A stretch of 64,000 nucleotides of DNA from Dehalococcoidia bacterium (GCA_030649945.1 JAUSFE010000040.1:26266-90265), one strand, 5' to 3'; positions 8,080-62,712 are shown, numbered from the stretch's first letter. Notes: generated by a model not told the origin, from the letters alone. Program-made: numbers and translations.

Positions 8080-8205
8080 AGCAGCGGTCAGTGGTCAGCG
8101 GTCAGCCAGCAGCGGCGGGGGCGACAGCGCCGCGGATGACCAATGGGAGTTCGAAGCTGACCGCTGAACGCCGGCGGCTGACCGCTAAAGGCTGATCGCT
8201 GGTCG

Positions 8206-8556: not shown

Positions 8557-8563
8557 GACGGGC

Positions 8564-35075: not shown

Positions 35076-35130
35076 CTAATTCGTATCTGAAATCGGCCTC
35101 AGAGCGCCGTCCAGTCCGCGAGCCGTGGGC

Positions 35131-35154
35131 GTTTGACAGCAGATTTGACAGCAA
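35131..35154 (+). repeat. putative integrase arm-type site (TTTGACAGCA x2), left end of element
   Basis: Identical 24-mer recurs at 42789-42812 near the other end, in the same orientation. Confidence 0.4.
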
Positions 35155-35271
35155 CCAGCGACGCAACGGGGTGCTAAACGCTCTCGGCCACGGCCACGAT
35201 CACCGCAGGGCAAGCCGCGCGAAGGCTTCAGTAGGTGATATCATCCTGACTTAAAGCAAGGAGATGCATCG

Positions 35272-35517
35272 ATGACACGGCTCTACTGGAAAGCCAAAGA
35301 CGCAATCGAATTCGCGCGGCGCTTCGAGGCGCTCTGCGATGCCACAAAGGGCACCCCTAATGCCCCGCTTGTGGACCGGCTCGGCGAGGTGCTGACCCTG
35401 GAAGGCACGGACACGACAGCGATCTTTCACACCCTCGCGAAGGGTGCCAGCGCGTCCCAACTCCAGGTCCTGCAGGACATCTACGAAGCCGAAGGGTTCC
35501 AGGCTGACGGCTACTGA
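35272..35517 (+). CDS. hypothetical small protein (element cargo)
   Basis: 81-aa ORF, start preceded by AGGAGATG. No recognisable domain. Confidence 0.35.
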   Translation: MTRLYWKAKDAIEFARRFEALCDATKGTPNAPLVDRLGEVLTLEGTDTTAIFHTLAKGASASQLQVLQDIYEAEGFQADGY

Positions 35518-35801
35518 GCGGGACGCGCTCTTACCCGCCGAAACATAGGTTTCAGTCCCCGGCACCGTCCCAAATGTAGGCCGCAAGGGGTGGTTAGCCG
35601 GGCTCGCAACTACCACGGCCCGCTACCACGCCCCGCACGGGGCGCAGCCGCGCCAGGCGCACGGCAGGCCACTACCCCCCCCTTCATTTTCCCCGGAGTT
35701 GTTGTCGGCAGACTTCATTGCAGCCTGCAAGGAAGTGGTTTCGCCGTCACGCTTGCCCTGCTCGCGTTCCAGTTCTGCTAATAGCGCCCCGCCAAGACTA
35801 G

Positions 35802-36404
35802 TTAGCGCTGCAACACGCTGAGCGGCGGGTCCGCTACCTGTAGGCGCGCCGCTGCCATGATCCGCGCGCCGTGATGGGCCACGAAGGCGCTTGCGTAGTC
35901 GCTGGCCGCCGCCTCTTGCTGCTCGTAAGTCGCGCCGGGATGTAGTGGGGTGTAGTGCAGATGATGGACTTCATGGGCCACGGTGCGAACGGAGGATTCA
36001 GCGTCCTGTTCGGCGCTAACCCAGAACTGCCCGCGCTCCCATAGGGCGACGCCGGTCAACTCAACGTCGGAGGTAATGAGGACTCGCCCGCTGCCGCCAA
36101 ACGCCTCGAAGTAACCCATATCGCCCGCCACGTTAAGCTCGTCACCGGCCAAAAAGTGCGCGTATTCCGTGGCGGCCTTTAAGAGCGCCGGCGGCGAGTG
36201 ACAGCGCCCATACTTGAAGGTAGCGGCCTGACTGGCGGCGACGGCGAGTACGGAGATGACAGGTCTTAGCGGCACTTCCACGCGATACGGCTTCGATTGC
36301 TCCTTGACGATTGCCCGCGCTCTTTCGAGAATGTCGCCCGAGATCAGCCCCGGCGGAAGAGCCGGGCGGAAGAGCGACGGCGGGTCCGCGTATCGCAGTG
36401 TCAT
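35802..36404 (-). CDS. putative zinc metallopeptidase (HExxH; ImmA/IrrE-like?)
   Basis: VAHEVHHLHY contains HEVHH. About 200 aa. Its location in a mobile element fits an anti-repressor-type peptidase. The family assignment is an inference. Confidence 0.4.
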   Translation of the reverse strand: MTLRYADPPSLFRPALPPGLISGDILERARAIVKEQSKPYRVEVPLRPVISVLAVAASQAATFKYGRCHSPPALLKAATEYAHFLAGDELNVAGDMGYFEAFGGSGRVLITSDVELTGVALWERGQFWVSAEQDAESSVRTVAHEVHHLHYTPLHPGATYEQQEAAASDYASAFVAHHGARIMAAARLQVADPPLSVLQR

Positions 36405-37072
36405 TTCGCCTCTCCCGCCTGGGCAATCATCGCCCTCAACGCGGCGAGCCTTCCGGCGACTTCGCCAGCACTGAGCGCTTCCAACTTCAGCGCTTCCGCC
36501 TGCAACCGGGCCTCGTTGATCGCTGCCAACTGGGCTTGCACGGCTTCCCCGTTGCCAGTAAGCGGCGAGCGCTGTTCCGTCACCAGGTTCAGCGTCCCGC
36601 CTGAGACATTGATTGGAGTCCGGCGGACTTGCTCGAAGAGGACGCTCAGCTCGCCCAGGAACGCGGCGATCTCGGGGTCCGCCGTCGCCTCAAGCTCCGC
36701 ACTCAGCGCGTCACGCTCGCGGGCGAAGCGGGCGCGAAGGTTGCTCTCCACAATGGCGGCCTCCCGGAGCGCGGCCGTCGCCGTCTCCACCGCCGTCTGT
36801 GCAGCTCCCACGCGGGCCTGGGCTTTGGCGCGGGCGTCAACGAGTGCAGGTAACGCCGCCTCAAAGTCCGCCGTCAGCGCTGCTATCTGCACCGCCTTTG
36901 CCTTGCGGAGTGCGAGCTGCTCTCGGGCGTCTTCCTCGATGATTCTTTGCCCAATCGGCCCGGAAGTCAGCCTGTCCAAAACCCTTTGCGTGAGCGTTGG
37001 GTTTGTCATGTTGTTGCCCCTTTCCTGGCTAGTCGTTTGGTTCGTACTCCGGTCATGTACCTCGTGCGACAC
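36401..37072 (-). CDS. hypothetical coiled-coil protein
   Basis: Ala/Glu/Leu/Arg-rich heptad-like sequence. Start may be the internal MTNPT (37009). Confidence 0.4.
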   Translation of the reverse strand: MSHEVHDRSTNQTTSQERGNNMTNPTLTQRVLDRLTSGPIGQRIIEEDAREQLALRKAKAVQIAALTADFEAALPALVDARAKAQARVGAAQTAVETATAALREAAIVESNLRARFARERDALSAELEATADPEIAAFLGELSVLFEQVRRTPINVSGGTLNLVTEQRSPLTGNGEAVQAQLAAINEARLQAEALKLEALSAGEVAGRLAALRAMIAQAGEAK

Positions 37073-37379
37073 CGAGGGGGGTGCCTCTCGTCTTCCCCAA
37101 CAGCAGGCGAAGGCGGGCCTCGGCGGCAGCGATGCGCGAATTAGTCGCCTTCAGCCGGTCCTTCCAGCGCGTGCCGTACACGTACCGCGTGTATTCGTCG
37201 TCTGGCAGGGTGCGGTAGTGGCTGGCGTCTGCCTCCAGGGAGCTGAGAAGGCGTTGGACGCGCCGGACCTCGTAAGCCGCGGCCTGCCTGCATATCTCGC
37301 CGCAGAACAGTCGCGGGCGTCCCGTCTTTGGTTGCTGAAGAGCCGTTCCGCACTTGGCGCAACCTAGTTTCTCAGACAT
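37053..37379 (-). CDS. hypothetical zinc-ribbon protein
   Basis: MSEKLGCAKCGTALQQPKTGRPRLFCGEICRQ has a CxxC...CxxxC arrangement. Start at the internal Met of the track ORF. Confidence 0.4.
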   Translation of the reverse strand: MSEKLGCAKCGTALQQPKTGRPRLFCGEICRQAAAYEVRRVQRLLSSLEADASHYRTLPDDEYTRYVYGTRWKDRLKATNSRIAAAEARLRLLLGKTRGTPLGVARGT

Positions 37380-37473
37380 GACCCCCCCTGCCGAATACGC
37401 GGGCAAAAACGCGGCGCTGCACACCGTATTAGAAGCGATGGCAGGCCCAGCGATTTGGCCCGGATATTGGGGG

Positions 37474-37815
37474 TTAGGACCATCGCCCACCGTCCCTCAG
37501 GCGCTCCGTCGCACTCTTCCGGGAATGACAGGAGTGGCAAAGGCTTTCCAGCCCCGCCGGGTCGAGGCGCGCGCCCCCCTGGCTCACGGGACGTACATGA
37601 TCCACCTGCTCGGCCGGCTTGCCGCATCGGACGCAGGTCGGGTTAGCCGCGATGTACGCGTCCCTGACCTTCCGCCAGTCCGGGCCATAGACACCGCGCC
37701 GCAGTGGGTTGCGGCCGCGTTCATAACTGGCCAGGTGCTCGGCGCATAACCCGCCCCGCTTGGCCGGGTGCGAACAGGCGGAGAGCCGACACGGGGTGTT
37801 CACGCGGCTCGGCAC
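37474..37815 (-). CDS. HNH endonuclease
   Basis: CVRCGKPAEQVDHVRPVSQGG...LESLCHSCHSRK: HNH motif with a zinc-binding Cys quartet. Confidence 0.8.
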   Translation of the reverse strand: MPSRVNTPCRLSACSHPAKRGGLCAEHLASYERGRNPLRRGVYGPDWRKVRDAYIAANPTCVRCGKPAEQVDHVRPVSQGGARLDPAGLESLCHSCHSRKSATERLRDGGRWS

Positions 37816-38021
37816 TTCAACCCCCCAACCCGTACACAGAGAAATCTGCGATCACGGCGTATTAGAAGCATGGCAGCCACAGCAATTGCAGGCCACCTAT
37901 GGGGGTTGACCACGCACCTCAGCCGGCGGGGCCGCCGCCGCCCAGACAGCGAACCCCGCCGACTGCGGAGGAGGGAGATGAACCGTAGTTGTCTTTTGGT
38001 ATCGCCTGCGGGCCGTCGTCA

Positions 38022-38318
38022 TCAGAACGCCTCCGGTCCGGCACAGCGGTCACAATGAACCAGGACAAGCACATCGACGGGTAGGTGCGCCGCGCCGAAG
38101 TAGACATCTTGAGCCCGGCGGCGAGCGTCAGCGGGTTGCAGACTGACTCCGCAGCTATCACACGAGAGCGGCCCCGGCAGTGGACGCCGGAAGGCGCTTG
38201 CCGCGAGCGCGAGGTATTCCCGGTCCCGCCGCTCAAGCTCACGATCTCTATCGGAAGGCGGGCGGTCTTCGTATCCCTCGAATGGGGCGGCCAGCAGGGT
38301 CACGCCCGCAACTCCCAA
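38022..38318 (-). CDS. hypothetical protein
   Basis: 98-aa ORF overlapping the primase gene end by 19 nt. Weak. Confidence 0.25.
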   Translation of the reverse strand: MGVAGVTLLAAPFEGYEDRPPSDRDRELERRDREYLALAASAFRRPLPGPLSCDSCGVSLQPADARRRAQDVYFGAAHLPVDVLVLVHCDRCAGPEAF

Positions 38319-40468
38319 CTCGCGGCGTAGCCCGGCGCCTCGGGGTCCGCGTCGTCACAACAGGGCGCCCACTCCTGGGCAGGCGGCCGCCGGGCGATGA
38401 TGGGCAGGCCGGACCCTTCGACTCCGGCCCGGACCAGCGGCCCGTCCGTCTCCTGCAGGTAGTGCGCGAAGCATCGGGGCGTGCCATCGGGGGCGTAGCC
38501 TTCGATTTCGGGCGAGCCGCAGATGCAGACGGAGGACAGGGGGGGCTGTTGGGCCTTGTCGCCCATCCCTGAAAGAACAGCAACCCCGGTAACAAGAGCA
38601 ACTTCGTTCGTATCTATGGTTGCTCTTTCTTCCTTAGTTGCTCTTGTTTCAAGGTAGCGAGAGAACGCATCCTCGAACTGTTGCGCCTGATACCCCTTCG
38701 GTTTCTTTCCGTCGTAGTCAATCGTCTTGGCTTTGATACCGAACTGCCGCAGACGCCAGCCCAGCCGGCGAGTGTCTAGCGGCTTGCTGTTCAAGTCTCC
38801 CCAGGGCGCATCCTCTATGACAACCAGCTCCGCCACCAGGTTGGCGATGGTGATCTTGTCCCTGCCCGTGATGATGGTCTGTATGTCGCTCAGGAGCCGC
38901 ACACCCAAACTATTGTCCTCGCGGCCATCCCCAACGCTGAGCGCCAGCGCCGCCGCCCTCGCACGTTGCGGCCAGTCCCCGCCTGCCAAGTCCGCGATGG
39001 CGAGTAGTGGTTCCCATCCGTCAGCAGCACGATCGTCTAACTCTAGTAGGTCGGGCTGAGCATCCGTCAGCGCAGGCAGAGCGGATAACGCCCATGCTTG
39101 CAAGAGCTGGCGCAACGGCTCCGCTTCGGTCTGAGCGTGACGCCAACGGAACCGAGCCACGGTTTCCCCAGGAGCGCGACGCTTTAGGATGATGGTGATT
39201 GAGCGGTCGCTGATCGTATCCGGCAGTCGCCCGATGCCAGCAATCGCCTTCGCTCCAAAGACTGGAAAGTCCTTAACCTCCATTGAGGCACCTTGACCAA
39301 CGCAGAGTGTGGCGCAACCGCCTCTGCGATGCCCGTTATTGAGGATGCCCCGGAGCGCTTCGCTGAACTCCGCCGGACCTTTGAACGCCGCGTCTGACTC
39401 GTCTATCAACGCTGTCACTCCGTCGCCCATCTTGCGAACCAGCGCCGCCGCCGTGGTCCTGCCGGTCAACCACGGGTGGGCTACTACGTGAACCAGGGTT
39501 TCTAGCAACCGCGTCTTGCCTGATCTCTTCTCCGCCGACGTTACTTCGAGGTAAGGCGTACTCTCCGCCGCGTCCAGCGCCCACGTATGAGCCGTCCAGA
39601 GTGCGAGCGCGTCCGCCTGAGCGTCCGCCAGGGCCACGTATCGGCGGATGATAACGCGCACGTCGTCCAGCAGCGCGGCCAGGTCCGCTTCCCCCGGCGC
39701 CCAGGGCACCGCCGCATCTAGGAGCTGGCGAAGAGCGTCATCATTCCCCAGGTAGTCGGCAGCATCGCCCTTATCGGGAGCGTCCGGCCAGTCCACGGTC
39801 CGCACGTCCGCGCACCCCAGCCGGGCCAGCGCGTCGGCGATACGCTGCATGTGTAACCGGCCAGGTTCGTCGTTGTCAGGCCACAGGGCGACGGAGAGCC
39901 GCACAAGTGGCCCCAGAGCATTGTGCCCCGGCGTCCCCGCCGCGCCCGTCACCGAACCCACGGCGGGGATACCGCGAGCCGTGAGAGCTTCCGCCGCTTT
40001 CTCGCCTTCCGTCAGGACTACGCGGGCGCCGTCAGGGAGATCGGCCAGCCGCACCGTGAAGTACAGCGGCAGCGCCGATACTGGCAGCCCGCCCAGGCCC
40101 ATTGAGCCGCCGGGCCGCTCCCAGCCGAACTTCTTATCGCCGTGGGGAAGATCACGCCGGATATGGACGGCCACCAGCTCGCCGCCAGTGTCCCGAATCT
40201 CGTAGCGTGTCTCGCGCGGCTTCGGCTTGCGCCCGTTCCTTGACGGCGGCGACGGCCACAAGCCGCGTTCCGTCAAGGCGGCGATCACGGCGTCCTGCGA
40301 GCATCCCGCGAAGTCCTTGACTAGCACCTTGCCGTCCTTGCCGGTGCCCACGGCCAGACTGGGCGTCTCATCGGCGTGGGAAGGGCAGTGAACCTTGCCC
40401 TTCGCCCGCTGGCACTCGCAGCCTGAGCGGCCACAGGCAAGGGCCTGGGCGATCTCGGAGGCAGTCAC
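38300..40468 (-). CDS. DNA primase/replication protein (N-terminal zinc-binding, TOPRIM, C-terminal DUF3631-like domain)
   Basis: CECQRAKGKVHCPSH zinc motif. TOPRIM VVLTEGEKAAEAL...LWPDNDEPG. C-terminal segment LEVTSAEKRSGKTRLLE...IDESD resembles the DUF3631 found on actinobacterial integrative elements. Confidence 0.75.
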   Translation of the reverse strand: MTASEIAQALACGRSGCECQRAKGKVHCPSHADETPSLAVGTGKDGKVLVKDFAGCSQDAVIAALTERGLWPSPPSRNGRKPKPRETRYEIRDTGGELVAVHIRRDLPHGDKKFGWERPGGSMGLGGLPVSALPLYFTVRLADLPDGARVVLTEGEKAAEALTARGIPAVGSVTGAAGTPGHNALGPLVRLSVALWPDNDEPGRLHMQRIADALARLGCADVRTVDWPDAPDKGDAADYLGNDDALRQLLDAAVPWAPGEADLAALLDDVRVIIRRYVALADAQADALALWTAHTWALDAAESTPYLEVTSAEKRSGKTRLLETLVHVVAHPWLTGRTTAAALVRKMGDGVTALIDESDAAFKGPAEFSEALRGILNNGHRRGGCATLCVGQGASMEVKDFPVFGAKAIAGIGRLPDTISDRSITIILKRRAPGETVARFRWRHAQTEAEPLRQLLQAWALSALPALTDAQPDLLELDDRAADGWEPLLAIADLAGGDWPQRARAAALALSVGDGREDNSLGVRLLSDIQTIITGRDKITIANLVAELVVIEDAPWGDLNSKPLDTRRLGWRLRQFGIKAKTIDYDGKKPKGYQAQQFEDAFSRYLETRATKEERATIDTNEVALVTGVAVLSGMGDKAQQPPLSSVCICGSPEIEGYAPDGTPRCFAHYLQETDGPLVRAGVEGSGLPIIARRPPAQEWAPCCDDADPEAPGYAASWELRA

Positions 40469-40659
40469 CGGACGGCGTCCGCCGTAGCTTCGGCCAGGAG
40501 CCGCGCCGCGTAGGCGTCAACCTCAGCCGTACTCACCCGGACCGCGCGGCCGATCCGGACCGCGTGCAACTCGTTCGCCGTGAGAAGCTCGTACAGCTTC
40601 GAGCGCCCCAGCGACAGCCTGGAAGCCGCAGCCGGGATTGTCAGCAAGATTTGTTCCAT
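40465..40659 (-). CDS. excisionase/DNA-binding HTH protein (Xis-like)
   Basis: 64 aa. AASRLSLGRSKLYELLTANELHAVRIGRAVRV is a helix-turn-helix typical of MerR-like excisionases. Overlaps the primase start. Confidence 0.6.
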   Translation of the reverse strand: MEQILLTIPAAASRLSLGRSKLYELLTANELHAVRIGRAVRVSTAEVDAYAARLLAEATADAVR

Positions 40660-40746
40660 ATCGTCGCCTCCCTGGGGGTAGTGTTTTTACTCGTTCGCCA
40701 TACTCACGTTGACACAGGGCAAGCGCCGTGGCAATATACAGAGGAT

Positions 40747-41676
40747 ATGCAACCGTCCGAAGAGACGTCCGACTTTCTGGAGATGGACAGCCCGCTCGCG
40801 GGCTACTGGTTCAAGCCGGACGCCGGGTTCGAGTGGGCCAGGCCGGGCGTGCCGGTATACGACGAACGCGGCCAGCCTGTGCCTGACAAGGGGCCGTGGT
40901 TGGTGCCAAGAGGGGATACCGGGACTCGCTATGCCGTGCTGCGCCGGAGCCGTCTCCTGCCCGCGTTCGCCGATCTGGGCCGCAACGCCTCGCCCGAGCG
41001 CGTCCTTACGTTCGCGAACGAATGGGGGCCGCTCGGCCAGGGCGAATGCAATGTTGGGAAGCGGTCAGGCGCGTCGCTCAATACGTGGGGCGCTCACGCC
41101 CGCAAGGTTGCGACCCTCTGTCACCTATGGGAATGGGTCCGGCTGGGAGATACCGAGCGCCTGGAGCCGTACATCCGCTGGCAGTCGCGCCCGGCGATGG
41201 TGAGCATAGCGTTAGTGTCCGTGAACGGTTTGCCCGACGCCGGGCGTTCAGCCCGGATGACTGGTGTCGGGGCGCTTCCGCCCAACTCTTGGGGGCCGGT
41301 CTACACTCTCGCGAGCGCATCCCATGACCCGAACGGCTTTCTGCGCCAGTGGGAGCATGGCGACCCTGTGGAGCCGATGCGCTACTATGTCTGCCAGTCC
41401 GTGAATCAGGCGTTGGAAGGGCACATTAACCGGGCCGTCCTGCCGTACTACGGCTACGCCGTCCGCTACTTCCCGGACTCCCTGCTGAGCGCCGTATACC
41501 TACGCCTCCAGGACCGGATAGCGGGCGCTGTCCGCCAGGAGCGCCAATGCACGGCTCCGGGGTGCCCGCAAGGGCGATTCATACCGGGGCGCAGCGATCA
41601 ACAGTATTGCAGCAACCTCTGCAGGAAGCGGGCGCACTATCACGCCCAGAAGGAAGGTAAGAGTGATGGCAGGTAA
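40747..41676 (+). CDS. hypothetical protein with C-terminal Cys-rich (zinc-finger-like) tail
   Basis: Start at MQPSEETS. C-terminal CTAPGCPQGRF...YCSNLCRKRAHYH. Overlaps the integrase start (operon). Confidence 0.45.
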   Translation: MQPSEETSDFLEMDSPLAGYWFKPDAGFEWARPGVPVYDERGQPVPDKGPWLVPRGDTGTRYAVLRRSRLLPAFADLGRNASPERVLTFANEWGPLGQGECNVGKRSGASLNTWGAHARKVATLCHLWEWVRLGDTERLEPYIRWQSRPAMVSIALVSVNGLPDAGRSARMTGVGALPPNSWGPVYTLASASHDPNGFLRQWEHGDPVEPMRYYVCQSVNQALEGHINRAVLPYYGYAVRYFPDSLLSAVYLRLQDRIAGAVRQERQCTAPGCPQGRFIPGRSDQQYCSNLCRKRAHYHAQKEGKSDGR

Positions 41677-42793
41677 GCGCGGGAACGCCGAAGGCACGAT
41701 CTACAAGCGCACAGATGGGCGATGGTGCGCCGCCGTGACGCTGGACGGGGGTAAGCGCCGGGCCTTCTACGGGGCCACCCGTGGGGCCGTCCAGGACAAG
41801 CTCAGGGCCGCGAAGCGGGCGATAGACGACGGCCTGCCCGTTAGCTCCGACCGCCAGAAGGTCGGCCATTTCCTTACCCGATGGCTGGCCGAAGTCGCGC
41901 AGCCGACAGTCCGCCCGAGCACATACACCCGCTATCGCGAGCTGCTCACCGGCCACGTGGTCCCCGCGCTCGGCCATCTGCCGCTCGCGAAGCTCGGCCC
42001 CCAGGACTTGAACGCCCTTTACGGGAAGCTCGCGCAGCGCCTCGCGCCCCGCACAGTCGGCCACGTCCACCGCGTCTTGCACCGGGCTCTCCGCGATGCC
42101 CTCCATTGGGGGCTTGTCGCCCGCAACGTCTGCGACGCCGTGAGTCCGCCGAAGGTCGCACGTGCGGAGATGCAGGTTCTCGGCCCTGAACAGGCCCGCG
42201 CCCTGATCGCCGCCGCTGCTGGCGACCCTCTGGAAGCGGTCTACACGCTGGCGATCTTAACCGGACTCAGGCAAGGCGAATTGCTGGCGCTGAAATGGCG
42301 CGACTTCGACGCTGGCGCTGAACGTCTTACCGTCTGCCGCAGTGTGCGATGGGTGACTGGCCTGGGGTCAGTTGAGGGTGAGCCTAAGACGCGGAGCGGG
42401 CGCCGCAGTGTACTACTCGCGCCCCTAGTCGTCGCCGCTCTCAGACGGCACAGGACGCAGCAAACCGAGCAGCGATTACGGGCCATCGCGTGGGAGGACA
42501 ACGATCTGATTTTCACTAACGAGATAGGCCGCCACATCGAAGCAAGCAACCTGCTCCGCCGGTCATTCCGGCCCCTGCTCGAACGGGCCGATCTGCCGCG
42601 AATCCGGTTCCACGATCTCCGCCATACCGCCGCGACACTCCTACTCGGCCAGGGAGTGCACGCCAAGATCGTCAGCGAGATGCTGGGGCATTCCAACATC
42701 GCCATCACGATGGACCTCTACAGCCACGTCACGCCGACGATGCAGGCCGACGCCGCCGCGAAGATGGAGGCGCTATTCACCGTCGCAGTTTGA
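41663..42793 (+). CDS. int: tyrosine-type site-specific integrase
   Basis: N-terminal SAM-like/arm-binding domain. Catalytic R...HDLRHTAATLLL...LGHSNIAITMDLYSHV (R-H-R-Y box). Confidence 0.92.
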   Translation: MMAGKRGNAEGTIYKRTDGRWCAAVTLDGGKRRAFYGATRGAVQDKLRAAKRAIDDGLPVSSDRQKVGHFLTRWLAEVAQPTVRPSTYTRYRELLTGHVVPALGHLPLAKLGPQDLNALYGKLAQRLAPRTVGHVHRVLHRALRDALHWGLVARNVCDAVSPPKVARAEMQVLGPEQARALIAAAAGDPLEAVYTLAILTGLRQGELLALKWRDFDAGAERLTVCRSVRWVTGLGSVEGEPKTRSGRRSVLLAPLVVAALRRHRTQQTEQRLRAIAWEDNDLIFTNEIGRHIEASNLLRRSFRPLLERADLPRIRFHDLRHTAATLLLGQGVHAKIVSEMLGHSNIAITMDLYSHVTPTMQADAAAKMEALFTVAV

Positions 42794-54510: not shown

Positions 54511-55644
54511 CTAAGGCTGTTTTTCGGTGTCACCCGGGTCGATGCAGGGCAGTTCTGCCGTGATCGTGGTGCCCTCGCGGGGCACTGAACGAATGTCCAG
54601 AGTGCCGCCCACGAGACGGGCCCGCTCATCCATTCCCAGCAGCCCCAGCTTGCCCGTCTCGCCCAGCTCGCTCAGAGGTCCCGCCAACCTGAATCCACAC
54701 CCGTTGTCCGCCACGGTCAGCGTGATCCGGCCCCGCCGGCCGTGCAGAGAGACGACGGCCGCGGTCGCGCCTGAGTGCCGGCCGACGTTGCGCAAGGCCT
54801 CCTGGGCGATGCGGAACAGCAGCAACTGCGTCTCCTGCGAATGCTCCGGCAGGGCTCCCACCACCTCCACACGAGCCTCGATGCCGTACTGGTCGAGGAG
54901 GGTATCGGCGAGCCACTTCAGGGCGGCGACGAGGCCTTGATCATCGAAGACGCGCGGCCGCAGGTGCTGAGTGAGACGGCGGAGGTCAGTGAGGGTCCTG
55001 ACCGTTTCGGCACGCAGATCTTGCAGCTCCGACGCCACCTCTGACGAAAGGCGGAAGCCTTCGTCGGCGGCCAGGCGGTCCAGCCGCTGGCAGGTAAGAA
55101 GAAGCGCCTGCGCCGTGTCGTCGTGCAGCTCCATGGCGATGCGCTTGCGCTCGTCCTCCTGTGACGTCAGTACCTGGCGCACGAAGTAACGCAGGCCATT
55201 GCGCATCCTCCTCTGCGTCGCCGCCTCCTTGATCTGTTGGGTTACGGCGACGACCGAGAGCCCACCTACTACCATGATGCCGGCCATCTCCGACAATGCG
55301 TGGTCGGTGTGCGGCGAGTTCACCACCGCCCGCGGAAGGAAGAACGCAAAGGCGACTGCCGCCGTGGCGCCTCCACCCTTGCCGCCGAACACAAATGTGG
55401 CATATACCACCGGCAACAGTATCAGAATCCGCTCTATGCTCTGTCTGACTGTAATGTTGATCGGGCAACCATCCGCTACGGCGGAGAGGAGGGGAAGCAT
55501 ATCTGCGTAGTGAGCCAGGATGGCCGCCGAAAGCATGGCGACGGTGAGCGAAAGGCGAAACAGGTATCCGTCCGCTCTTGGCCCGGCCAGCCCGAGGCGA
55601 TCTTGCCAGCGGCGGACGTCGATTCGCGGTGCCGCGATCTCCAT
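54511..55644 (-). CDS. membrane sensor histidine kinase (HisKA_3/NarX-type)
   Basis: Multi-TM N-terminus. H-box ELHDDTAQALL. HATPase_c LRNVGRHSGA...DNGCGF. Confidence 0.85.
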   Translation of the reverse strand: MEIAAPRIDVRRWQDRLGLAGPRADGYLFRLSLTVAMLSAAILAHYADMLPLLSAVADGCPINITVRQSIERILILLPVVYATFVFGGKGGGATAAVAFAFFLPRAVVNSPHTDHALSEMAGIMVVGGLSVVAVTQQIKEAATQRRMRNGLRYFVRQVLTSQEDERKRIAMELHDDTAQALLLTCQRLDRLAADEGFRLSSEVASELQDLRAETVRTLTDLRRLTQHLRPRVFDDQGLVAALKWLADTLLDQYGIEARVEVVGALPEHSQETQLLLFRIAQEALRNVGRHSGATAAVVSLHGRRGRITLTVADNGCGFRLAGPLSELGETGKLGLLGMDERARLVGGTLDIRSVPREGTTITAELPCIDPGDTEKQP

Positions 55645-55658: not shown

Positions 55659-56354
55659 CTAAATTGGCTCCTGAGCGCCAACGTCAGGGGCCCTCGGTGT
55701 CACGTCTTCCATGCGGATCCAGCCCTTGCGCAGAGCCTGCAGCACCGCTTCGGTCCGCGAGCCAACGCCCGTCTTGTTGAAGATGTTGACCAAATGGGCC
55801 TTCACGGTCGGGAGACTGAGGGCCAGCTCGGTGGCGATCTCCTTGTTGCTTAAACCGCTGGCAGCGAGGCCCAGTACCGCCAACTCGCGTTCTGTCGGCC
55901 GTTCGCCGCTGGTGGACGGCAGGGCGGGACCGGGCGTGCGGGCCGCCATGACCAGGAGCCTGGCCGTCACGGCCGGATGAAGCACGGCGTCCCCCGCGTG
56001 GATTGCGCGAATGGCCTGGATCACCTCCTGACCGCACGAGTGCTTCAGGAGGTACCCGGCGACGCCGGCCTCTAGCAGGCCAAGCACGTACCGGTCATCG
56101 TCATAGGCGCTGAGGATGATGACTGCGGTGGTGGGGTTGGACACCTTGATCCGTTTAGTCGCTTCGATGCCGTTGAGTTCCGGCATCACCACATCCATCA
56201 GGACAACATCGGGTTCGAGGGCCTGGACTATTGCCACGGCCTCCGCGCCGTTGGCCGCTTCGCCAACGACCTGCATGTCCGGCTCCTTCTCCAGAACCCT
56301 GCGCAGGCCCTCTCGCAGCAGGCTGTGATCGTCCACCAGCACGACGCTAATCAC
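55659..56354 (-). CDS. NarL/FixJ-family response regulator (REC + LuxR HTH)
   Basis: VVLVDDHSLLREGLRRVL...DVVLMDVVMPELNGIE. LuxR HTH LSNKEIATELALSLPTVKAHLVNIFNK. GTG start at 56354 assumed (GGAGCAGGAGA SD). Confidence 0.85.
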   Translation of the reverse strand: MISVVLVDDHSLLREGLRRVLEKEPDMQVVGEAANGAEAVAIVQALEPDVVLMDVVMPELNGIEATKRIKVSNPTTAVIILSAYDDDRYVLGLLEAGVAGYLLKHSCGQEVIQAIRAIHAGDAVLHPAVTARLLVMAARTPGPALPSTSGERPTERELAVLGLAASGLSNKEIATELALSLPTVKAHLVNIFNKTGVGSRTEAVLQALRKGWIRMEDVTPRAPDVGAQEPI

Positions 56355-56440
56355 TTTCCATGTCTCCTGCTCCACCCCTACCACAGGATATTGTGTGACG
56401 ATTCACGAATGCTGTCCAGAACCTTTAGTACTAAACCTAT

Positions 56441-56485
56441 TGACCCGTACCTATCTCAATCTACTGACGCGTACCTATCTAAACG
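56441..56485 (+). promoter_or_regulatory. 21-bp direct repeat pair TGAC(C/G)CGTACCTATCT(C/A)AA in a divergent intergenic region
   Basis: tgacccgtacctatctcaatc + tac + tgacgcgtacctatctaaacg, between the divergent RR gene and a membrane-protein gene. Confidence 0.4.
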
Positions 56486-56544
56486 ACGAGGGCGATGCAT
56501 TCTGCTGGCCGACGTGCGGCACCACTGGCGGTGCGACAGTGAGG

Positions 56545-57066
56545 ATGGAAGGTCAAGAGGAGATACCAAGGTGGCAATCATTCGAGGCTCGCGTCGAACA
56601 ACCAAGGCGCCTCGGCTCCATTGTTACCCCCATCGTGATGGCCCTAGGTTGGATGGTGGCGAGGAGCGAAAAAGAGACCCGGACTGTAGCGCTGGAACAG
56701 GAGGCTAGGGAAATGGACGGCACGATTTGCGTCTTCCTGGTTGATCTGCCCCTTCTCACGTTGGTGCTGGCTGTGATCGGCGTCATTGCCTGGAATCGGA
56801 ACGGCGGGGCCATGTCCGTACTGGGCAGGGGTATTCCAATGGACATGAAGTTCGTCGGGATAGCGGCGATGGTCGTCCTGTGGCTGTTGCTGAGCGTGGC
56901 CTCTATGTGTCTCGCCTTTCTCGGTGGCCTGGTGGTCTTCTATGTCCTGCTGTTCTGGCTGGGACACGTGGCTGCCAGCATCGGGGCTGTTCTGATCCTG
57001 ACGTTCCTGGCGTCCATCCCATTCTTCTGGGGGTGGGCGTTGCTCAGATCAGGCGAACAGCGATAG
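56545..57066 (+). CDS. hypothetical membrane protein
   Basis: Start at MEGQEEIPRW after GTGAGG. Four predicted TM helices. Confidence 0.45.
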   Translation: MEGQEEIPRWQSFEARVEQPRRLGSIVTPIVMALGWMVARSEKETRTVALEQEAREMDGTICVFLVDLPLLTLVLAVIGVIAWNRNGGAMSVLGRGIPMDMKFVGIAAMVVLWLLLSVASMCLAFLGGLVVFYVLLFWLGHVAASIGAVLILTFLASIPFFWGWALLRSGEQR

Positions 57067-57114: not shown

Positions 57115-57807
57115 ATGAGCGAGAACGCAAGATCGGGCGAGAGCGGAGTCAGGCTGCGAGTCATGCTTTGCCACGATGTGCCCGTGATGCGCGGTGGACT
57201 GCGGTCCATCATCAACGCCGAGAGGGATATGGAGGTGGTGGCAGAGGCTGACGGCATCACCCAAGCCGTCGATCTGATTGACGAAGCCAGGCCGGAGGTG
57301 ATCGTCACCGACCTCTGCATGGACAACGGCAGTGGGCTCGACGGGATGCGCTCTGTGAAGAACGTGGCCCCATGGCTCCACATACTGGTGCTCGCTGGAC
57401 AGGGGTCAGGTGATCTCTTCCCCATGGCGATGAGAGCCGGAGCCGACGGCTACCTGATGCGGGACGCAGAGCCGACGGAGGTGGTCAACGCCATCCGCTG
57501 CGTGAGCAAGGGCCACAACTACGTCAACGCCTCCATCGTGACCCTGCTGGTGAGCACCTACGTGTGCAAGACACGCCGCGCAGACCTGCGCGATTCATAC
57601 GATCTCCTGAGTGACCGCGAAAGGGAGACCTTGTGCCTGGCAGCCGCCGGCCACACGAACCGTGAGATTGCCGATATCTTGCGCCTGAGTGAGCGCACCA
57701 TTCACAACGTGCGGGCCCGGCTGATGGAGAAGCTGGGCTTTCACGACCGGTTGGAGCTTCTTAAGTATGCCCTTCGGCGCGGCATCATCAGCGCCGGGGA
57801 TATGTGA
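57115..57807 (+). CDS. LuxR-family response regulator-like transcription factor (atypical receiver)
   Basis: REC-like N-domain (VMLCHDVPVMRGGL...VIVTDLCMDNGSGL). C-terminal LuxR HTH LSDRERETLCLAAAGHTNREIADILRLSERTIHNVRARLMEKLG. Confidence 0.75.
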   Translation: MSENARSGESGVRLRVMLCHDVPVMRGGLRSIINAERDMEVVAEADGITQAVDLIDEARPEVIVTDLCMDNGSGLDGMRSVKNVAPWLHILVLAGQGSGDLFPMAMRAGADGYLMRDAEPTEVVNAIRCVSKGHNYVNASIVTLLVSTYVCKTRRADLRDSYDLLSDRERETLCLAAAGHTNREIADILRLSERTIHNVRARLMEKLGFHDRLELLKYALRRGIISAGDM

Positions 57808-57841
57808 CGTGGCCCGGGAGCAACGGGAGGAGTGACTGACA

Positions 57842-58045
57842 ATGGCAATCATCACAACAGCCACGCTGTTTTCGGCCGGCTGCCTGGCGTTGGGCCTCGG
57901 TCTATTCCTGATCGCCGGGTCTGTCCGGAACCTTCATCAGGTCCGGCTCCTGCCCTCAGTTAGTGCCGTCACCGCGGCCGCGTTGGGCGGCGCGCTTCTG
58001 GTGGCGGCAGGCGCCTATGCTGCCCGCCTGGCGGTGCATCTGTAG
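57842..58045 (+). CDS. small hydrophobic protein (2 TM)
   Basis: 67 aa. GGAG 9 nt upstream of the ATG. Lies between the regulator and cytochrome genes. Confidence 0.4.
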   Translation: MAIITTATLFSAGCLALGLGLFLIAGSVRNLHQVRLLPSVSAVTAAALGGALLVAAGAYAARLAVHL

Positions 58046-58070
58046 GTGGAGCTGGGAAGGCAGAGACGCT

Positions 58071-58913
58071 GTGGAACTCAGTCTGAAGTGGCGGATCTCG
58101 GTCGCCCTCGCGGCGGTGGCCACCGCGTGGCTAATCGGCCTCACATCGGCCGGCGCCGACCCGCCCCCGCCGGCGGAGGGCGGCCGTGCTCAGAATGCCC
58201 TCTGCCTCTCGTGTCACGACCACAAGCTGACAGTCGGAGCCAACACCAGCCAAGAGCGGACCGTGGATTCTGTTCAGCGGCAGGGGTTCGACTCCTCCGC
58301 CCACAAGGGAATGGCGTGTGTTGACTGCCATGCTGCGGAGTCTGCTCTGCCCCACGTGCAACGGGAGGGCCCAGGGCTGCCGAATGCCAGTGGCGCCCTC
58401 GCCTGCCGGGAGTGCCACAGCGATGCCTACGAGGGCTTCATGGATGGCCACCACGGGACCATGGTGAACCTGGGCGATGACAGGGCGCCCACGTGCAGCG
58501 ACTGCCACGGCAATACCCACTACCTGCCATTCGTCCAGCAGTGGACAGTGAACGATCGTGCCGAGGCCTGTGCGGAATGCCACTCAGGGGCTACCACCAG
58601 CTTCCTAAATGCTGCGCCGGGCCACAAATCCGCTTCCTCCGGCTTCCTGTCGACGCCCTATTTCGCCGGCATCCTCCTCACGGTCCTGACTACGGCGACC
58701 CTGGCATTCGGCATCATTCACGTGGAACTGGAAATGCTTTCGCTGGCTCGTCCACCGCCTCGGCCGGGGACGCGGGGCAAGGACTACAGGCCATGGCCAC
58801 ACAAGTTAGTCGACACCAGCCGGCAGTCGTGGCGGCGGGGCAGCGGTCAACGACTGAGGACGCAAAGGTCGTCCGCTTCGACACGCACCAACGCATCCAG
58901 CACTTCCTCATGA
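58071..58913 (+). CDS. pentaheme c-type cytochrome with C-terminal membrane anchor
   Basis: Five CxxCH (CLSCH, CVDCH, CRECH, CSDCH, CAECH). N-terminal signal helix. C-terminal helix YFAGILLTVLTTATLAFGII. The last 40 codons overlap the next gene in another frame and look low-complexity. Confidence 0.75.
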   Translation: MELSLKWRISVALAAVATAWLIGLTSAGADPPPPAEGGRAQNALCLSCHDHKLTVGANTSQERTVDSVQRQGFDSSAHKGMACVDCHAAESALPHVQREGPGLPNASGALACRECHSDAYEGFMDGHHGTMVNLGDDRAPTCSDCHGNTHYLPFVQQWTVNDRAEACAECHSGATTSFLNAAPGHKSASSGFLSTPYFAGILLTVLTTATLAFGIIHVELEMLSLARPPPRPGTRGKDYRPWPHKLVDTSRQSWRRGSGQRLRTQRSSASTRTNASSTSS

Positions 58914-59713
58914 TGAGCAGTTTCATCGTGCTCGCGCTCACCGGGCTGCCGCAGAAGTTCAGCGAACTCGGCGTCAGTCAATGGTGGGTGGCAAGCCTCG
59001 GTGGCCTGGAGACCGTCCGCACCATCCATCACGTGGCCGCCTTCATTATGCTCACCGATTGCGCCTACCACCTCAGCTACCTCATGTACCGCATCGGCGT
59101 GCAACGACGCTTCGAGTGCCTCAGGATGGTGCCCACGTTCAAGGACTTGCGCGAGGGCCTTCAGATGATGCTGTACTTCCTGGGCCTGGCGCCTGAGAAA
59201 CCGAAATTCGACCGCTTCAGCTACCTCGAGAAGTTCGACTACTGGGCGGTCTTCTGGGGGATTGTCATCATCGGCGGATCCGGGCTGATCCTGATGTTCC
59301 CCGTGGCTGTGACCAGTCTGATGCCAGGCCAGACGGTGAGTCTCGCTCTCACCCTTCATACCCACGAGGCAATACTGGCTGTGGGTTGGATCCTCATCAT
59401 GCACATGTTCAATGTCCACCTGGCGCCGTGGGTCTTCCCCTTCAACCCGGCCATCTTCACCGGCAAGCTGAGCGCCAGGCGCTACGCCGAGGACCATCCC
59501 CTTGAGTGGGCCCGCCTGGAGGCGGCCGGACGAGCGGCGCCGGCGGCGACGCCCCCGAGGGCGGGTCGACGGCGGCCAGACGCGAGTGAGGGCGCCGCTC
59601 GCAGCGCGGTCGCTCGGAATGCAGCCAGGTGGGTTGGCGGGCTCGTCGGCACCGCCTGGGCGGTGCGGGCCCGGAAGTTTGCGGTTCTGGTTCGAAGGAA
59701 GCTCGTACCATGA
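58793..59713 (+). CDS. b-type cytochrome membrane subunit (FdnI/HydC Ni/Fe-hydrogenase cyt b family)
   Basis: RFDTHQRIQHFLMMSSFIVLALTGL (His ligand in TM1), HHVAAFIM, HTHEAILAVGWILIMH. Four TM. AAGGA SD 9 nt upstream of ATG 58793. Confidence 0.8.
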   Translation: MATQVSRHQPAVVAAGQRSTTEDAKVVRFDTHQRIQHFLMMSSFIVLALTGLPQKFSELGVSQWWVASLGGLETVRTIHHVAAFIMLTDCAYHLSYLMYRIGVQRRFECLRMVPTFKDLREGLQMMLYFLGLAPEKPKFDRFSYLEKFDYWAVFWGIVIIGGSGLILMFPVAVTSLMPGQTVSLALTLHTHEAILAVGWILIMHMFNVHLAPWVFPFNPAIFTGKLSARRYAEDHPLEWARLEAAGRAAPAATPPRAGRRRPDASEGAARSAVARNAARWVGGLVGTAWAVRARKFAVLVRRKLVP

Positions 59714-60807
59714 GGACGCCGACGCTTGTGTCGCTACTCGTGGCCGGCGGCCTCCTGCTGACCGCTTCAGTGGGCTTGTCTGCCGGAAGCAACGATAGTC
59801 CCCCCTCCTTGGAGGCCACTCCCACCCCGACACCCTCGCCGGCCGCTTCCCCGCCCGTTAGCGCGACTCCCGCACCGACCGCCGAGCCTACACCTTCCGC
59901 TTTGACACACCGAAGCACTGTCCGCCAACAGTTCCTCTGCGAGAGCTGCCACCGTCTCGACGGCGGGTGGCTCTTGCCCGACACTCACGCCGCTCTGCAG
60001 GGGCAAGCCTGCGACAGCTGTCACGCGCCGGCGCCAGAGCCGTCGCCGGCCGCGGTCCACTTCGTGCCCGGCGACACTGCCACCCAGGAACTCTGCACGC
60101 TCTGTCACAGCGACCTCGCGCAGCTTGCGCCGCGCCCGCTGGCGCCGCAGATCGCGGCCGCCCAGGCCTGTGACTCGTGCCATCGTGGCAACCAGCGTGC
60201 TGCCCCTCCGGCAGACCACGTGGGGCGGTCCGTGGCGACCTGCTCGCTCTGCCACGAGACACGGACGCTGACCGCCCAGGCCGTGCCTCACAAGGTCAAA
60301 GGGTGGGAGGAGTGCAGCTTCTGCCACGGGGCGGGTCGCCTGGCACCTGTGAAAGGCGGCCACAAAGATCTCAAGGACGAAGAGTGCATCCGATGTCACG
60401 ACGCAGTTCAAGCTCCGCCGGGCATACCAAAGGCGATGCTGGATCACTCCGAGTTGAAAGGCGGGTGCACGTCGTGCCACAGCGAAGGCCTGCTGGCGCC
60501 GCTGCCCGCCGACCACGCGGAACGCACTGACCTGACGTGCGCCCTCTGCCACAGCGCCACCAGCAGGAAAGCCCCCTCGGTGCCTCACTCGCTGATTGGC
60601 CAACGTGCCTGCAGCAGCTGTCATCCATCCGAAACGCTCGCCACACTGCGCGGGCATGCCGATCTTCGCGATGAGGCCTGTGCCGCGTGCCACAGGGAGT
60701 GGCCCACAGGCGTGCCTTTAATACCTCACGCTCTAAGCGGGCGCACAGATTGCACCGATTGCCATGCGCCGGCTCCCCATGCACCCGCGAACGGGCTTGT
60801 GGAGTGA
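59710..60807 (+). CDS. secreted dodecaheme c-type cytochrome (c7/c3-like repeats)
   Basis: Twelve CxxCH motifs, each followed by a distal His in (A/V)P..(P)H spacing. Signal peptide. Pro/Thr/Ser linker. ATGA overlap with the cyt b stop. Confidence 0.85.
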   Translation: MRTPTLVSLLVAGGLLLTASVGLSAGSNDSPPSLEATPTPTPSPAASPPVSATPAPTAEPTPSALTHRSTVRQQFLCESCHRLDGGWLLPDTHAALQGQACDSCHAPAPEPSPAAVHFVPGDTATQELCTLCHSDLAQLAPRPLAPQIAAAQACDSCHRGNQRAAPPADHVGRSVATCSLCHETRTLTAQAVPHKVKGWEECSFCHGAGRLAPVKGGHKDLKDEECIRCHDAVQAPPGIPKAMLDHSELKGGCTSCHSEGLLAPLPADHAERTDLTCALCHSATSRKAPSVPHSLIGQRACSSCHPSETLATLRGHADLRDEACAACHREWPTGVPLIPHALSGRTDCTDCHAPAPHAPANGLVE

Positions 60808-60898
60808 CTCAATGCAAGGAACCTTTGTGTCTTAGTGCCTTCGTGTTTATCCCGGGGAGTCCTCACCAACGAAGACACAAAGACACCAAGGTTGCAGA

Positions 60899-61388: not shown

Positions 61389-61408
61389 TGCTCCCCCCCA
61401 TCAGCCCT

Positions 61409-61598
61409 CATAACCCGTGAAACCCATTTTCTGCCAAACAAACTCCGTGTCCATCTGTGAACCATCTGTGTCCATCTGTGGACCTCGTAACCCGTGAAAC
61501 CCATTTTCTGCCAAACAAACTCTGTGTCCATCTGTGAACCATCTGTGTCCATCTGTGGACCCCGTAACCCGTGAAACCCCTTTTCTGCCAAACAAACT
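61409..61598. repeat. 77-bp tandem repeat (2.5 units) between the APH and DUF6285-like genes
   Basis: Unit taacccgtgaaacccattttctgccaaacaaactccgtgtccatctgtgaaccatctgtgtccatctgtggacctcg. Units differ at 2-3 positions. Confidence 0.75.
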
Positions 61599-61632
61599 CC
61601 GGCCCTTCTTCGTGTCTTTGTGTCTTCGTGGT

Positions 61633-62712
61633 TTATCCCGGCTCCCCCATCAACGCTAACAGCTCCCACTCCGTCTCCGCCGTGCGCCGGCCGATGGCCG
61701 CCAGCTCCAGCGCCCGCCCGGGCGAGAGGGCGGCCCGGGTGGCGGGCTCCAGGTAGGTGCGCGCCTGGCCGATGCAGATGATCCCCCAGCGCAGGTTGCC
61801 GAACAGCTCCCACCAGCGGACGGCCTGCGCGTCCACCCTGCGGCCGCCGGCGGCCTCGTAGGCCTGCCACAGCTCTTCGCGAGTGCCGATGCCACCCGCG
61901 GGCAGGTTGTCGTTGCCGAAGCGCCAGGAGCGCACGCACAACCAGGCCAGGTCCTCCATGGGGTCGCCGATGTGCGCCAGCTCCCAGTCCAGGACAGCGC
62001 GCACACCTTCCGGGCCGAAGATGACGTTGCCGATGCGGTAATCGCCGTGGACCAGGGTGGGGTCGCCGGCCGGCGGCGGGTGACGGCGGAGCCGGCGCAG
62101 CGCCAGCTCGAAGGCGGGATGGGGCTCCGGCGCGATGGCGCGATAGGTCACTTCGTAACGCTCAAGCTCCGTCTCCGCCGGGGACTTGCCCGGCGGGGGA
62201 GACGGCAGGTCGAGCCCCTGCCCGGAGGCCGGCACCCGGTGGATGGCCGCGGCGATGGCGCCGAGCTGCCCCGTCATCACCCCGCGGGCCTGCGCGTATT
62301 CGTCATCGCGGAGAAGGCGGCGGGCGATCGTCTCGCCCTCGACGCGCTCCATGAGAAAGAAGGGCATGCCCAGGGAGTCGTCGCCGATGAGATGCACTTT
62401 GGGCGCCGGCACGCCCGCTGCGGCGGCGGCCTGGAGCAGCGCGAACTCGGTCTCGCGTGACATCAGGTTCTGGGCGCGGCGCGGGTCGCTGCGGCAGACC
62501 AGGGGCAGCGTTTCGGCGCGGCCGTCTGCGTGCTCGATGACGGCGTCGAAGGACCACGTCTGGCGGGAGGCGCCGCCGGTGAGGAGCCGGAGGTCCAGGA
62601 TGCGGACGGCGCGCGCGCCGTGGGAGCGCTGGAGGAAGGCATGGAGCTTCGCGGCCACGTCTGCAGTGTGGTCGGTGCGGGTCGCCGGGGCTGCCGGCCT
62701 GTCCTCAGTCAT
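61633..62712 (-). CDS. phosphotransferase-family protein (APH/choline-kinase fold)
   Basis: Brenner motif HGDYRIGNVIF and DWELAHIGDPMEDLAWL. Confidence 0.8.
   Translation of the reverse strand: MTEDRPAAPATRTDHTADVAAKLHAFLQRSHGARAVRILDLRLLTGGASRQTWSFDAVIEHADGRAETLPLVCRSDPRRAQNLMSRETEFALLQAAAAAGVPAPKVHLIGDDSLGMPFFLMERVEGETIARRLLRDDEYAQARGVMTGQLGAIAAAIHRVPASGQGLDLPSPPPGKSPAETELERYEVTYRAIAPEPHPAFELALRRLRRHPPPAGDPTLVHGDYRIGNVIFGPEGVRAVLDWELAHIGDPMEDLAWLCVRSWRFGNDNLPAGGIGTREELWQAYEAAGGRRVDAQAVRWWELFGNLRWGIICIGQARTYLEPATRAALSPGRALELAAIGRRTAETEWELLALMGEPG

Follow-up and report, generated by a model that had tools for sequence, protein, structure and literature searches.

The locus studied here raises the question of where a bacterium would send, or from where it would take, the electrons handled by two multihaem cytochromes c and a membrane-embedded cytochrome b encoded side by side. 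It lies on the plus strand, between 56713 and 60807, of a stretch of 64,000 nucleotides (nt) from a Dehalococcoidia bacterium (GCA_030649945.1 JAUSFE010000040.1:26266-90265), referred to below, at its full length, as the window. It consists of six co-directional, closely spaced genes, the last three of which encode a pentahaem cytochrome c, a dihaem cytochrome b and a 12-haem cytochrome c. The reading favoured here, with moderate confidence, is that the operon specifies a three-subunit bc cytochrome of the CbcL type, connecting the (mena)quinone pool with c haems outside the membrane, probably in the outward direction. It is through modules leading from the quinone pool to cytochromes c that electrons enter the pathways of extracellular transfer, and these modules are among the few conserved markers by which this process can be predicted in uncultured bacteria.

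Cytochrome b and the FdnI Fold

The gene at 58793-59713 (plus strand) encodes a cytochrome b of 306 amino acids (aa) with four membrane helices. Its start was placed at the ATG at 58793 (MATQVSR...); homologues of about 300 aa share this start and are aligned with 100% query coverage. The start at 58910, proposed by the automatic call of the identical Logan contig described below, was rejected, as it would delete the RFDxHQRxQH segment, in which the first ligand histidine is found.

The protein matches PF01292 (36.4 bits against a cut-off of 30.1), and the only match to it among PDB sequences is FdnI, the cytochrome b of Escherichia coli formate dehydrogenase-N (1KQF). In this match, H37, H79, H189 and H204 align to H18, H57, H155 and H169 of FdnI, which we take, in the numbering of 1KQF, to be its haem ligands. 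All four are invariant in an alignment of 30 cytochrome b sequences, and in the four-helix fold they are placed on helices I, II and IV, two of them on helix IV. The AlphaFold2 model (predicted local distance difference test score, pLDDT, 72.8) gave in Foldseek a sole significant PDB match, again FdnI (1kqf_C, E 1.8e-6, target TM 0.71). The assignment to the FdnI/HydC family made in the original prediction, a reading of the sequence by a model, is thus borne out by domain, structural match and ligands, none of the four histidines having been lost.

Judging by the equivalog models, the protein is not an orthologue of FdnI, because its scores are three- to ten-fold under the FdnI/FdoI cut-offs (31.8 vs 115.85 for TIGR01583, and 32.4 vs 339 and 33.4 vs 341 in the other comparisons). 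The four-helix dihaem fold is common to both proteins, as are the four haem ligands, whereas their identity in the structural alignment is 23%, the partner of the window protein is a haem protein and that of FdnI is FdnH, with 4x[4Fe-4S], and no catalytic subunit goes with the cytochrome b of the window. In addition, H32, H93, H209 and H235 are invariant in the window family, which therefore holds more histidines than two b haems need.

These data bear on the possibility that the protein serves to anchor in the membrane a formate dehydrogenase, hydrogenase or thiosulfate reductase of the conventional kind, with the catalytic subunits encoded elsewhere. The PF01292 match would agree with such a function, as would the names 'cytochrome b subunit of formate dehydrogenase' and 'thiosulfate reductase cytochrome b subunit' given to many homologues by JGI, but it is contradicted by the equivalog scores and by the fact that, in essentially every relative, a multihaem cytochrome with a C-terminal anchor replaces FdnH/HydA before the cytochrome b. 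Moreover, no Mo or NiFe genes surround the cluster in the window, and catalytic genes of formate dehydrogenase or hydrogenase (molybdopterin, NiFe or Fe-S subunits) were sought there and none was found around the cluster. The standard formate dehydrogenase or hydrogenase operon, foreseen in the original prediction as an outcome that would overturn it, does not correspond to these surroundings, and a conventional anchor can practically be discounted.

The signature motifs of the family are RFDxHQRxQH, TGLPQKF and EKFDYWAVFWG. Invariant residues cluster at the cytoplasmic face (R28-H37, Y92-Y96, P137-G156 and H204-P216), and the EKFDYW motif aligns with segment 107-122 of FdnI, which presumably lines its quinone site. 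Because of this clustering, the quinone site of the window protein would be at the cytoplasmic face, by EKFDYW. The C-terminus is a basic, weakly hydrophobic helix, with no clear sixth membrane helix.

Pentahaem Cytochrome c

The gene of the pentahaem cytochrome c (58071-58808 after frame correction, plus strand) starts with the GTG at 58071 and directly precedes that of the cytochrome b. Its product has a Sec-type signal peptide, five CxxCH motifs, at least seven further histidines ahead of a membrane helix and, in this C-terminal helix, a conserved histidine (..FGIIHVELEML), so that both the five haems and the membrane anchoring that had been announced for it hold true. In E. coli formate dehydrogenase-N, FdnH is held next to FdnI by a single C-terminal helix, a topology that the pentahaem protein shares. 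Its Pfam matches are Paired_CXXCH_1 and Cytochrome_C7; weak NrfB-like matches were also obtained, and a search of PDB sequences with the pentahaem and 12-haem proteins gave weak generic multihaem matches only (MtrC/MtrA, NrfB and 6i5b, the last of which we take to be OcwA of Thermincola).

The last ~22 codons of the pentahaem gene are shifted in the window by one extra T, since DNA alignment places TTT at 58738-58740 (plus strand) against TT in three relatives. Uncorrected, the open reading frame (ORF) runs to 58913, its last 121 nt being shared with the cytochrome b gene. A -1 correction leads to the stop codon TAG at 58806-58808, with a 16-nt overlap with the cytochrome b start, and to the C-terminus ...GIIHVELEMLRWLVHRLGRGRGARTTGHGHTS, which is matched by that of the closest relative (...HVELEMLRWFVRRLSRARAARKTGHGHTS). 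The frameshift touches the short cytoplasmic tail only, leaving haems and membrane helix intact. The same TTT is found in Logan contig L001 (3 kb), an independent assembly identical to the window, and may reflect either a genuine mutation or an error of sequencing that both assemblies share. A programmed frameshift was discarded, as the three relatives read straight through.

Relation to CbcL and CbcBA

CbcL (Cbc1, GSU0274) of Geobacter combines a periplasmic domain of nine haems with six membrane helices of the HydC/FdnI type that come after it (Joshi et al.; PMC6295460; PMC9129911). The G. sulfurreducens protein was used as bait only, in the form of machine-read fragments of a supplementary figure of PMC9129911 that contain evident reading errors. 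The search with these fragments found six short proteins, one of which led to a nine-haem CbcL orthologue of Desulfuromonas thiophila (L088), frameshift-broken at position 4001, which served as the comparison sequence.

Against this orthologue, the cytochrome b matches the b-domain (BLASTP E 2e-40, 35% identity, 227 aa), and residues 45-244 of the pentahaem protein match residues 104-333, that is, the c-domain plus membrane helix (E 2.6e-8), the two matches keeping their order along CbcL. The cytochrome b also matches P0175 and P0174 (E 1e-35 and 5e-22, respectively), which are 56-86% identical to the machine-read fragments, and one of these fragments scores 93 against it, compared with 27 ± 5 for shuffled sequences. 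The motifs LTGLP.KF, KP.F.R..Y.EKFD..AVFWG, IGGSGL, HSDEA.LA and VH.FN.H are common to the cytochrome b and CbcL.

The histidine pattern fits as well. Candidate ligand histidines of CbcL are distributed over its helices as 1,1,1,0,2, that is, one each on helices 1, 2 and 3 and two on helix 5 (Joshi et al.), and in the window the counterparts would be the anchor-helix histidine of the pentahaem protein for helix 1, H37 for helix 2, H79 for helix 3 and the pair H189 and H204 for helix 5. The anchor-helix histidine, located at the cytoplasmic end, is conserved across phyla and in the CbcL orthologue, and it is likewise surplus to two b haems; these extra conserved histidines bear on how CbcL is gated by potential. 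Because both matches to the CbcL orthologue follow the same order and the histidine pattern fits, the sequences support the view that the pentahaem and cytochrome b genes are a split form of the CbcL architecture, in line with the domain composition originally proposed.

Thus, both systems have a b-domain of the same subfamily, directly preceded by a multihaem c domain and a membrane helix with a conserved histidine, and in both the c haems appear to be all bis-His (for CbcL, PMC9129911). In contrast, CbcL is a single polypeptide with nine haems and six helices, including a C-terminal one, whereas in the window c and b parts are encoded by separate genes, the c part has five haems, a sixth helix is not clear and there is a third subunit with 12 haems. 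They also differ in that the host of the window genes, probably a member of the Chloroflexota, has regulators of the NarL type next to them, while those of CbcL are of the sigma-54 type.

A comparable organisation has been described for CbcBA (Cbc5, GSU0593-0594) of G. sulfurreducens, in which a multihaem c subunit anchored by a C-terminal helix, which may supply a histidine, is followed by a separate four-helix dihaem b subunit. The operon likewise contains a response regulator and two hypothetical proteins, with a regulator transcribed divergently (10.1101/2021.04.15.440034). However, CbcA has seven haems, and the regulator is sigma-54 dependent. CbcB has no sequence homology to the b-domain of CbcL (Joshi et al.). 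The window cytochrome b is presumably not an orthologue of CbcB, because it is of the CbcL type and CbcB is unrelated to CbcL; it is this published statement that sets the two apart.

12-Haem Cytochrome c

The last gene of the operon (59710-60807, plus strand) encodes a protein with an N-terminal hydrophobic anchor or signal, a linker of ~45 residues rich in Pro, Thr and Ser, and 12 haem units of ~24 residues. The 12 CxxCH motifs, a number that agrees with the earlier count, are spaced 23-28 residues apart and are accompanied by 12 other histidines and no spare cysteine. The haem motifs are invariant among homologues, and there is no conserved methionine in the family. Therefore, the haems are apparently all bis-His, serving electron transfer and not a catalytic site.

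The c7-like character attributed to this protein stands at the level of Pfam domains (PF14522, Cytochrome_C7, 65.6 bits vs 24.8, E 3.4e-18; PF02085, 31.9 vs 22.9) and of haem density, and does not extend beyond those levels. The dodecahaem poly-c7 protein GSU1996 has 26 residues per haem (PMC9129911), against ~24 here. With the decahaem proteins MtrA/DmsE the 12-haem protein shares high haem density, weak MtrA/MtrC matches in PDB and a partial match to the DmsE family TIGR03508 (E 3.3e-13), but the score of 49.7 bits is far under the family cut-off of 192.2. What sets the window protein apart from both GSU1996 and MtrA/DmsE is its tethering to the membrane through an N-terminal anchor and a linker. 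The AlphaFold2 model, built on an alignment of 28 sequences, reached a pLDDT of 44 and a predicted TM score of 0.21.

A motif scan indicated that the 12-haem and pentahaem genes are the only ORFs with more than one haem motif in the window. The 12-haem protein has 53 detectable homologues, nearly all of them in the same type of cluster, and its family is far narrower than that of the cytochrome b.

Distribution, Gene Fusions and Partners

A unit of eight genes, comprising a histidine kinase, a response regulator and the six operon genes (117-aa protein, regulator, 67-aa protein, pentahaem cytochrome, cytochrome b and a cytochrome with 8-12 haems), recurs in metagenomic Chloroflexota contigs, and its flanks are unrelated or different in every relative examined. 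The comparative genomics called for in the original prediction has thus revealed a unit conserved in independent contigs, and taking into account that the haem motifs are invariant and that gene order recurs, the cluster is not a product of chance. The kinase is conserved beside the cluster in L002-L005. Metagenome-assembled genomes of Dehalococcoidia, Anaerolineaceae and 'Chloroflexi bacterium' provide the nearest named relatives, whose names are the basis for placing the host in the Chloroflexota; identity to the best match in GTDB is 67%. The assemblies L002, L005 and L088, of long-read style, contain frameshift-broken genes, including an uncalled pentahaem gene, molybdopterin genes in pieces and the split CbcL orthologue, and their gene calls need care.

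The pair formed by a multihaem cytochrome and this cytochrome b is widespread. In a pattern scan with one genome per GTDB species, at least 579 species carry a relative of the cytochrome b, belonging to Chloroflexota, Actinomycetota, Bacillota, Acidobacteriota, Nitrospirota, Gemmatimonadota, Myxococcota and other phyla. In the 80 best loci, the cytochrome b is almost always preceded by a cytochrome with 5-13 haems, homologous in its C-terminal part to the window pentahaem protein; 74 such upstream multihaem ORFs were collected, and the anchor-helix histidine is conserved in most lineages. Judging from these loci, the split form prevails across bacteria and is no oddity.

Natural fusions exist on both sides of the cytochrome b. 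The c-b type occurs in L010, L025, L042 and others, and the b-c type, in which the cytochrome b is joined to a 12-haem-like domain, in P0125, P0128-P0130, P0143 and P0144 (Dehalococcoidia-type, ~570-600 aa); in six of the 53 homologues of the 12-haem protein there is such a fusion, with a cytochrome b almost the same as that of the window. In the b-c fusions, the next membrane segment after the cytochrome b is the anchor of the 12-haem domain. These fusions argue that the three proteins would form one complex, and they provide a ready hypothesis for the arrangement of its subunits; the tight spacing of the genes, with overlaps of 16 and 4 nt, also counts for the three proteins being one unit. 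As an example of the first type, L010 encodes at 6873-8765 a Dehalococcoidia protein of 630 aa, with a seven-haem domain fused to the cytochrome b.

A membrane protein of 380-500 aa is encoded after the pair in Acidobacteriota, Gemmatimonadota and some Chloroflexota (L053 8859-10355, L015 6343-7800, L012 6197-7339 and similar loci); it has five haem motifs, and its N-terminal signature is NapC/NirT-like. Such clusters would contain a second cytochrome that interacts with quinone.

It could be thought that the window complex is a quinol dehydrogenase of the NrfH/CymA/NapC kind, a hub feeding a terminal reductase, soluble or membrane-bound, that is encoded elsewhere and acts, for instance, on nitrogen oxides, sulfur compounds or metalloids, without extracellular transfer. 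The NapC/NirT-type membrane cytochromes found beside the pair in other phyla are compatible with this proposal, as are the weak NrfB-like matches of the pentahaem protein and the molybdopterin oxidoreductase genes located just beyond the kinase in L005. Among the relatives that were compared, however, the cluster has no conserved reductase gene beside it. A hub would not need a 12-haem subunit of its own, tethered through a long linker, and the fusions of the cytochrome b with the 12-haem domain show that the wire itself is the fixed partner. A hub of this kind is, in consequence, distinctly unlikely.

A survey of 2018 listed no CbcL-type protein for Chloroflexi (PMC6295460, Table 1); the clusters described here indicate that Chloroflexota do carry the CbcL-type b subunit, split and joined to a dedicated 12-haem protein. 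The gain is incremental, since it extends a known enzyme family and adds a marker motif, with no new mechanism.

Direction of Electron Flow

In the mechanism proposed for this CbcL-type complex, two b haems would be stacked across the membrane in the four-helix cytochrome b. The exported pentahaem subunit, held by its C-terminal helix, would be over the outer b haem, where FdnH sits on FdnI, and the tethered 12-haem subunit would lengthen the haem chain away from the membrane by means of the Pro/Thr-rich linker. Menaquinol would be oxidised, and the electrons would leave the cell towards low-potential soluble or solid acceptors or a partner protein. Outward flow would spend part of the membrane potential, whereas inward flow would build it.

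For the complex of the window, the partner, an extracellular role and the direction in which electrons flow are inferred. By homology with CbcL, outward flow is the most likely direction and menaquinol oxidase activity is predicted, because Geobacter genetics show that CbcL works outward at low acceptor potential at the expense of growth yield, being needed below about -0.1 V (10.1101/2021.04.15.440034; 10.1101/2022.08.31.506072).

The family may, however, run in either direction, as illustrated by MtoC/MtrH, which Zhong and Shi place together with CbcL among the proteins that oxidise quinol or reduce quinone in pathways of extracellular electron transfer (PMC6295460). These are fused nonahaem proteins of the CbcL family, encoded in mtoAB porin-cytochrome operons of Gram-negative bacteria (PMC5566968), none of which is seen in the window. 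Thus, the main rival proposal is that electrons from a donor outside the cytoplasm, whether Fe(II), reduced humics, another cell acting as partner or a dehydrogenase of the periplasm, pass inward through the 12-haem and pentahaem subunits to menaquinone at the cytoplasmic face, building membrane potential as an arm of a redox loop, as FdnI or MtoC would do. It draws on the FdnI fold and ligands, on the conserved residues at the cytoplasmic face, where FdnI reduces quinone, on the location of MtoC in mto operons of Fe(II) oxidisers (PMC6295460; PMC5566968), and on the presence of the family in genomes of Nitrospirota, Rokubacteria and Burkholderiales as well as in those of reducers. Against it, CbcL, the only close homologue characterised genetically, acts as a quinol oxidase, and an enzyme oxidising the donor is not encoded nearby. 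In addition, haems that are all bis-His, at a density like that of c3/c7 proteins, are usually of low potential, which fits export to low-potential acceptors. Inward flow is therefore considered rather unlikely.

Several points weigh against the outward CbcL-type complex preferred here. Subunits of the FdnI type normally carry electrons inward, to quinone, and MtoC has been assigned to Fe(II) oxidisers (PMC6295460; PMC5566968). The polypeptide is split, and the c part has five haems and not nine. The shape of the 12-haem protein as a wire is conjectural, its model being unusable at a pLDDT of 44, and the frameshift could mean that this copy of the pentahaem gene is decaying. Moreover, a terminal reductase, cytochrome c maturation genes and further multihaem cytochromes were looked for and are absent from the 64-kb window.

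Operon Organisation and Regulation

The five genes named in the original prediction exist and are co-directional on the plus strand; the operon had been made to begin too far downstream, at the regulator gene, since a sixth gene (56713-57066) belongs to it. The successive genes are separated by gaps of 48, 34 and 25 nt and then overlap by 16 nt (frame-corrected) and 4 nt, this last overlap being the ATGA at 59710-59713, where the stop codon of the cytochrome b gene and the start codon of the 12-haem gene meet, just as had been noticed. A purine-rich stretch is located ahead of each start codon, and AGGAGG precedes the ATG of the first gene.

This first gene encodes a protein of 117 aa with four hydrophobic segments, without Pfam or NCBIfam match, whose orthologues of 117-140 aa occupy the equivalent position in L002-L006. 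The second (57115-57807, plus strand) encodes a LuxR/NarL-type response regulator (Pfam Response_reg E 1.3e-17, GerE E 1.6e-15) with a degenerate receiver, in which the phospho-acceptor Asp66 is kept, while DD has changed to HD, the conserved Thr to Ala and the conserved Lys to Arg. The degeneracy is common to the window, L002, L003 and L005, and the single regulator of the Anaerolineae-like L006 and L007 is canonical; thus, the operonic regulator may be a phosphorylation-independent paralogue. The third gene (57842-58045, plus strand) encodes a protein of 67 aa with two hydrophobic segments, which has no Pfam family and is conserved in relatives (phmmer 1e-7 to 1e-14). NCBIfam holds no model for the three cytochromes or the two small proteins.

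On the minus strand, a divergent pair adjoins the operon, formed by a histidine kinase (54511-55644; HisKA_3 and HATPase_c by Pfam) and a NarL-family response regulator (55659-56384; REC and GerE, Pfam Response_reg E 2.6e-29), whose receiver residues DD, D, S/T and K are all present. The description of this pair as NarX/NarL stands as far as the NarL-family HisKA_3 kinase and the REC plus GerE regulator are concerned, and fails for the kinase in that no NarX sensor or HAMP domain is found in it. The N-terminal ~160 residues of the kinase comprise four hydrophobic segments and no recognised sensor domain, Pfam finding no domain there. The divergent intergenic region (56385-56712, 328 nt by gene coordinates) presumably holds promoters for both transcription units; a scan of it for the sigma-70 consensus gave a single weak match, not above chance. 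Expression of the complex would probably be controlled by this adjacent intramembrane-type kinase and the NarL-type regulator.

A kinase without recognisable sensing domain, together with two conserved small membrane proteins and a degenerate-receiver regulator within the operon, could also be taken to mean that the complex and the small proteins report the redox state of the outside or of the quinone pool to the kinase, with the degenerate regulator forming part of the relay. The cbcBA operon of Geobacter likewise includes a regulator and two hypothetical proteins. Nevertheless, 17 c haems and two b haems represent a heavy outlay for sensing, and since most members of the family in other phyla lack these regulators, it is simpler to suppose that they control a respiratory module. 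A sensory function is thus highly improbable.

Origin and Surroundings of the Cluster

The GC content at third codon positions (GC3) is 0.75-0.81 in all eight genes of the cluster (0.78 in that of the histidine kinase) and 0.91-0.95 in six flanking genes. This GC3 island, together with flanks that vary between relatives, suggests that the eight-gene unit was acquired horizontally as a block. The upstream flank encodes AtuA, an MDMPI_N protein and alpha and beta subunits like those of methylcrotonyl-CoA carboxylase, and the downstream flank DUF6285, an APH-family kinase and a DUF7064/7065 protein.

A bolder proposal can also be made: the complex would serve as membrane base for a self-contained, horizontally mobile conduit of electrons, in which the 12-haem protein spans the envelope so that no porin-cytochrome is needed, the surplus histidines bind a third b haem or act as a potential-gated switch, and the kinase and small proteins read its state. 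If true, bacteria without an outer-membrane porin-cytochrome system, in this case probably Chloroflexota, would exchange electrons directly with minerals or partners. We regard this proposal as unlikely.

Right behind the last stop codon of the operon there is an inverted repeat (60823-60890), which may mark where transcription ends or be one instance of a repeated element; a scan for terminator consensus found nothing at this place. The hairpin is made of two copies of a 22-nt element, ACGAAGACACAAAGACACCAAG, present three times in the window against 0.01 expected, the third copy being inverted and 720 nt downstream (61608-61629). The idea that these repeats are ends of a mobile element around the cluster was discarded, as all three are downstream of it. 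A 77-nt unit is repeated three times in tandem at 61406-61636, between the DUF6285 and APH genes, with 97% and 65% identity to the first copy.

Further upstream, at 35000-42793, a tRNA-Trp is followed by a stretch of lower GC, reaching about 47000, which contains a DUF3631 protein (38300-40516, minus strand) and a tyrosine integrase (41522-42793); this region looks like an integrated mobile element. At 21275-23251, a subtilase-family protease is encoded whose C-terminus consists of ~20 tandem copies of the five-residue unit AIKWS.

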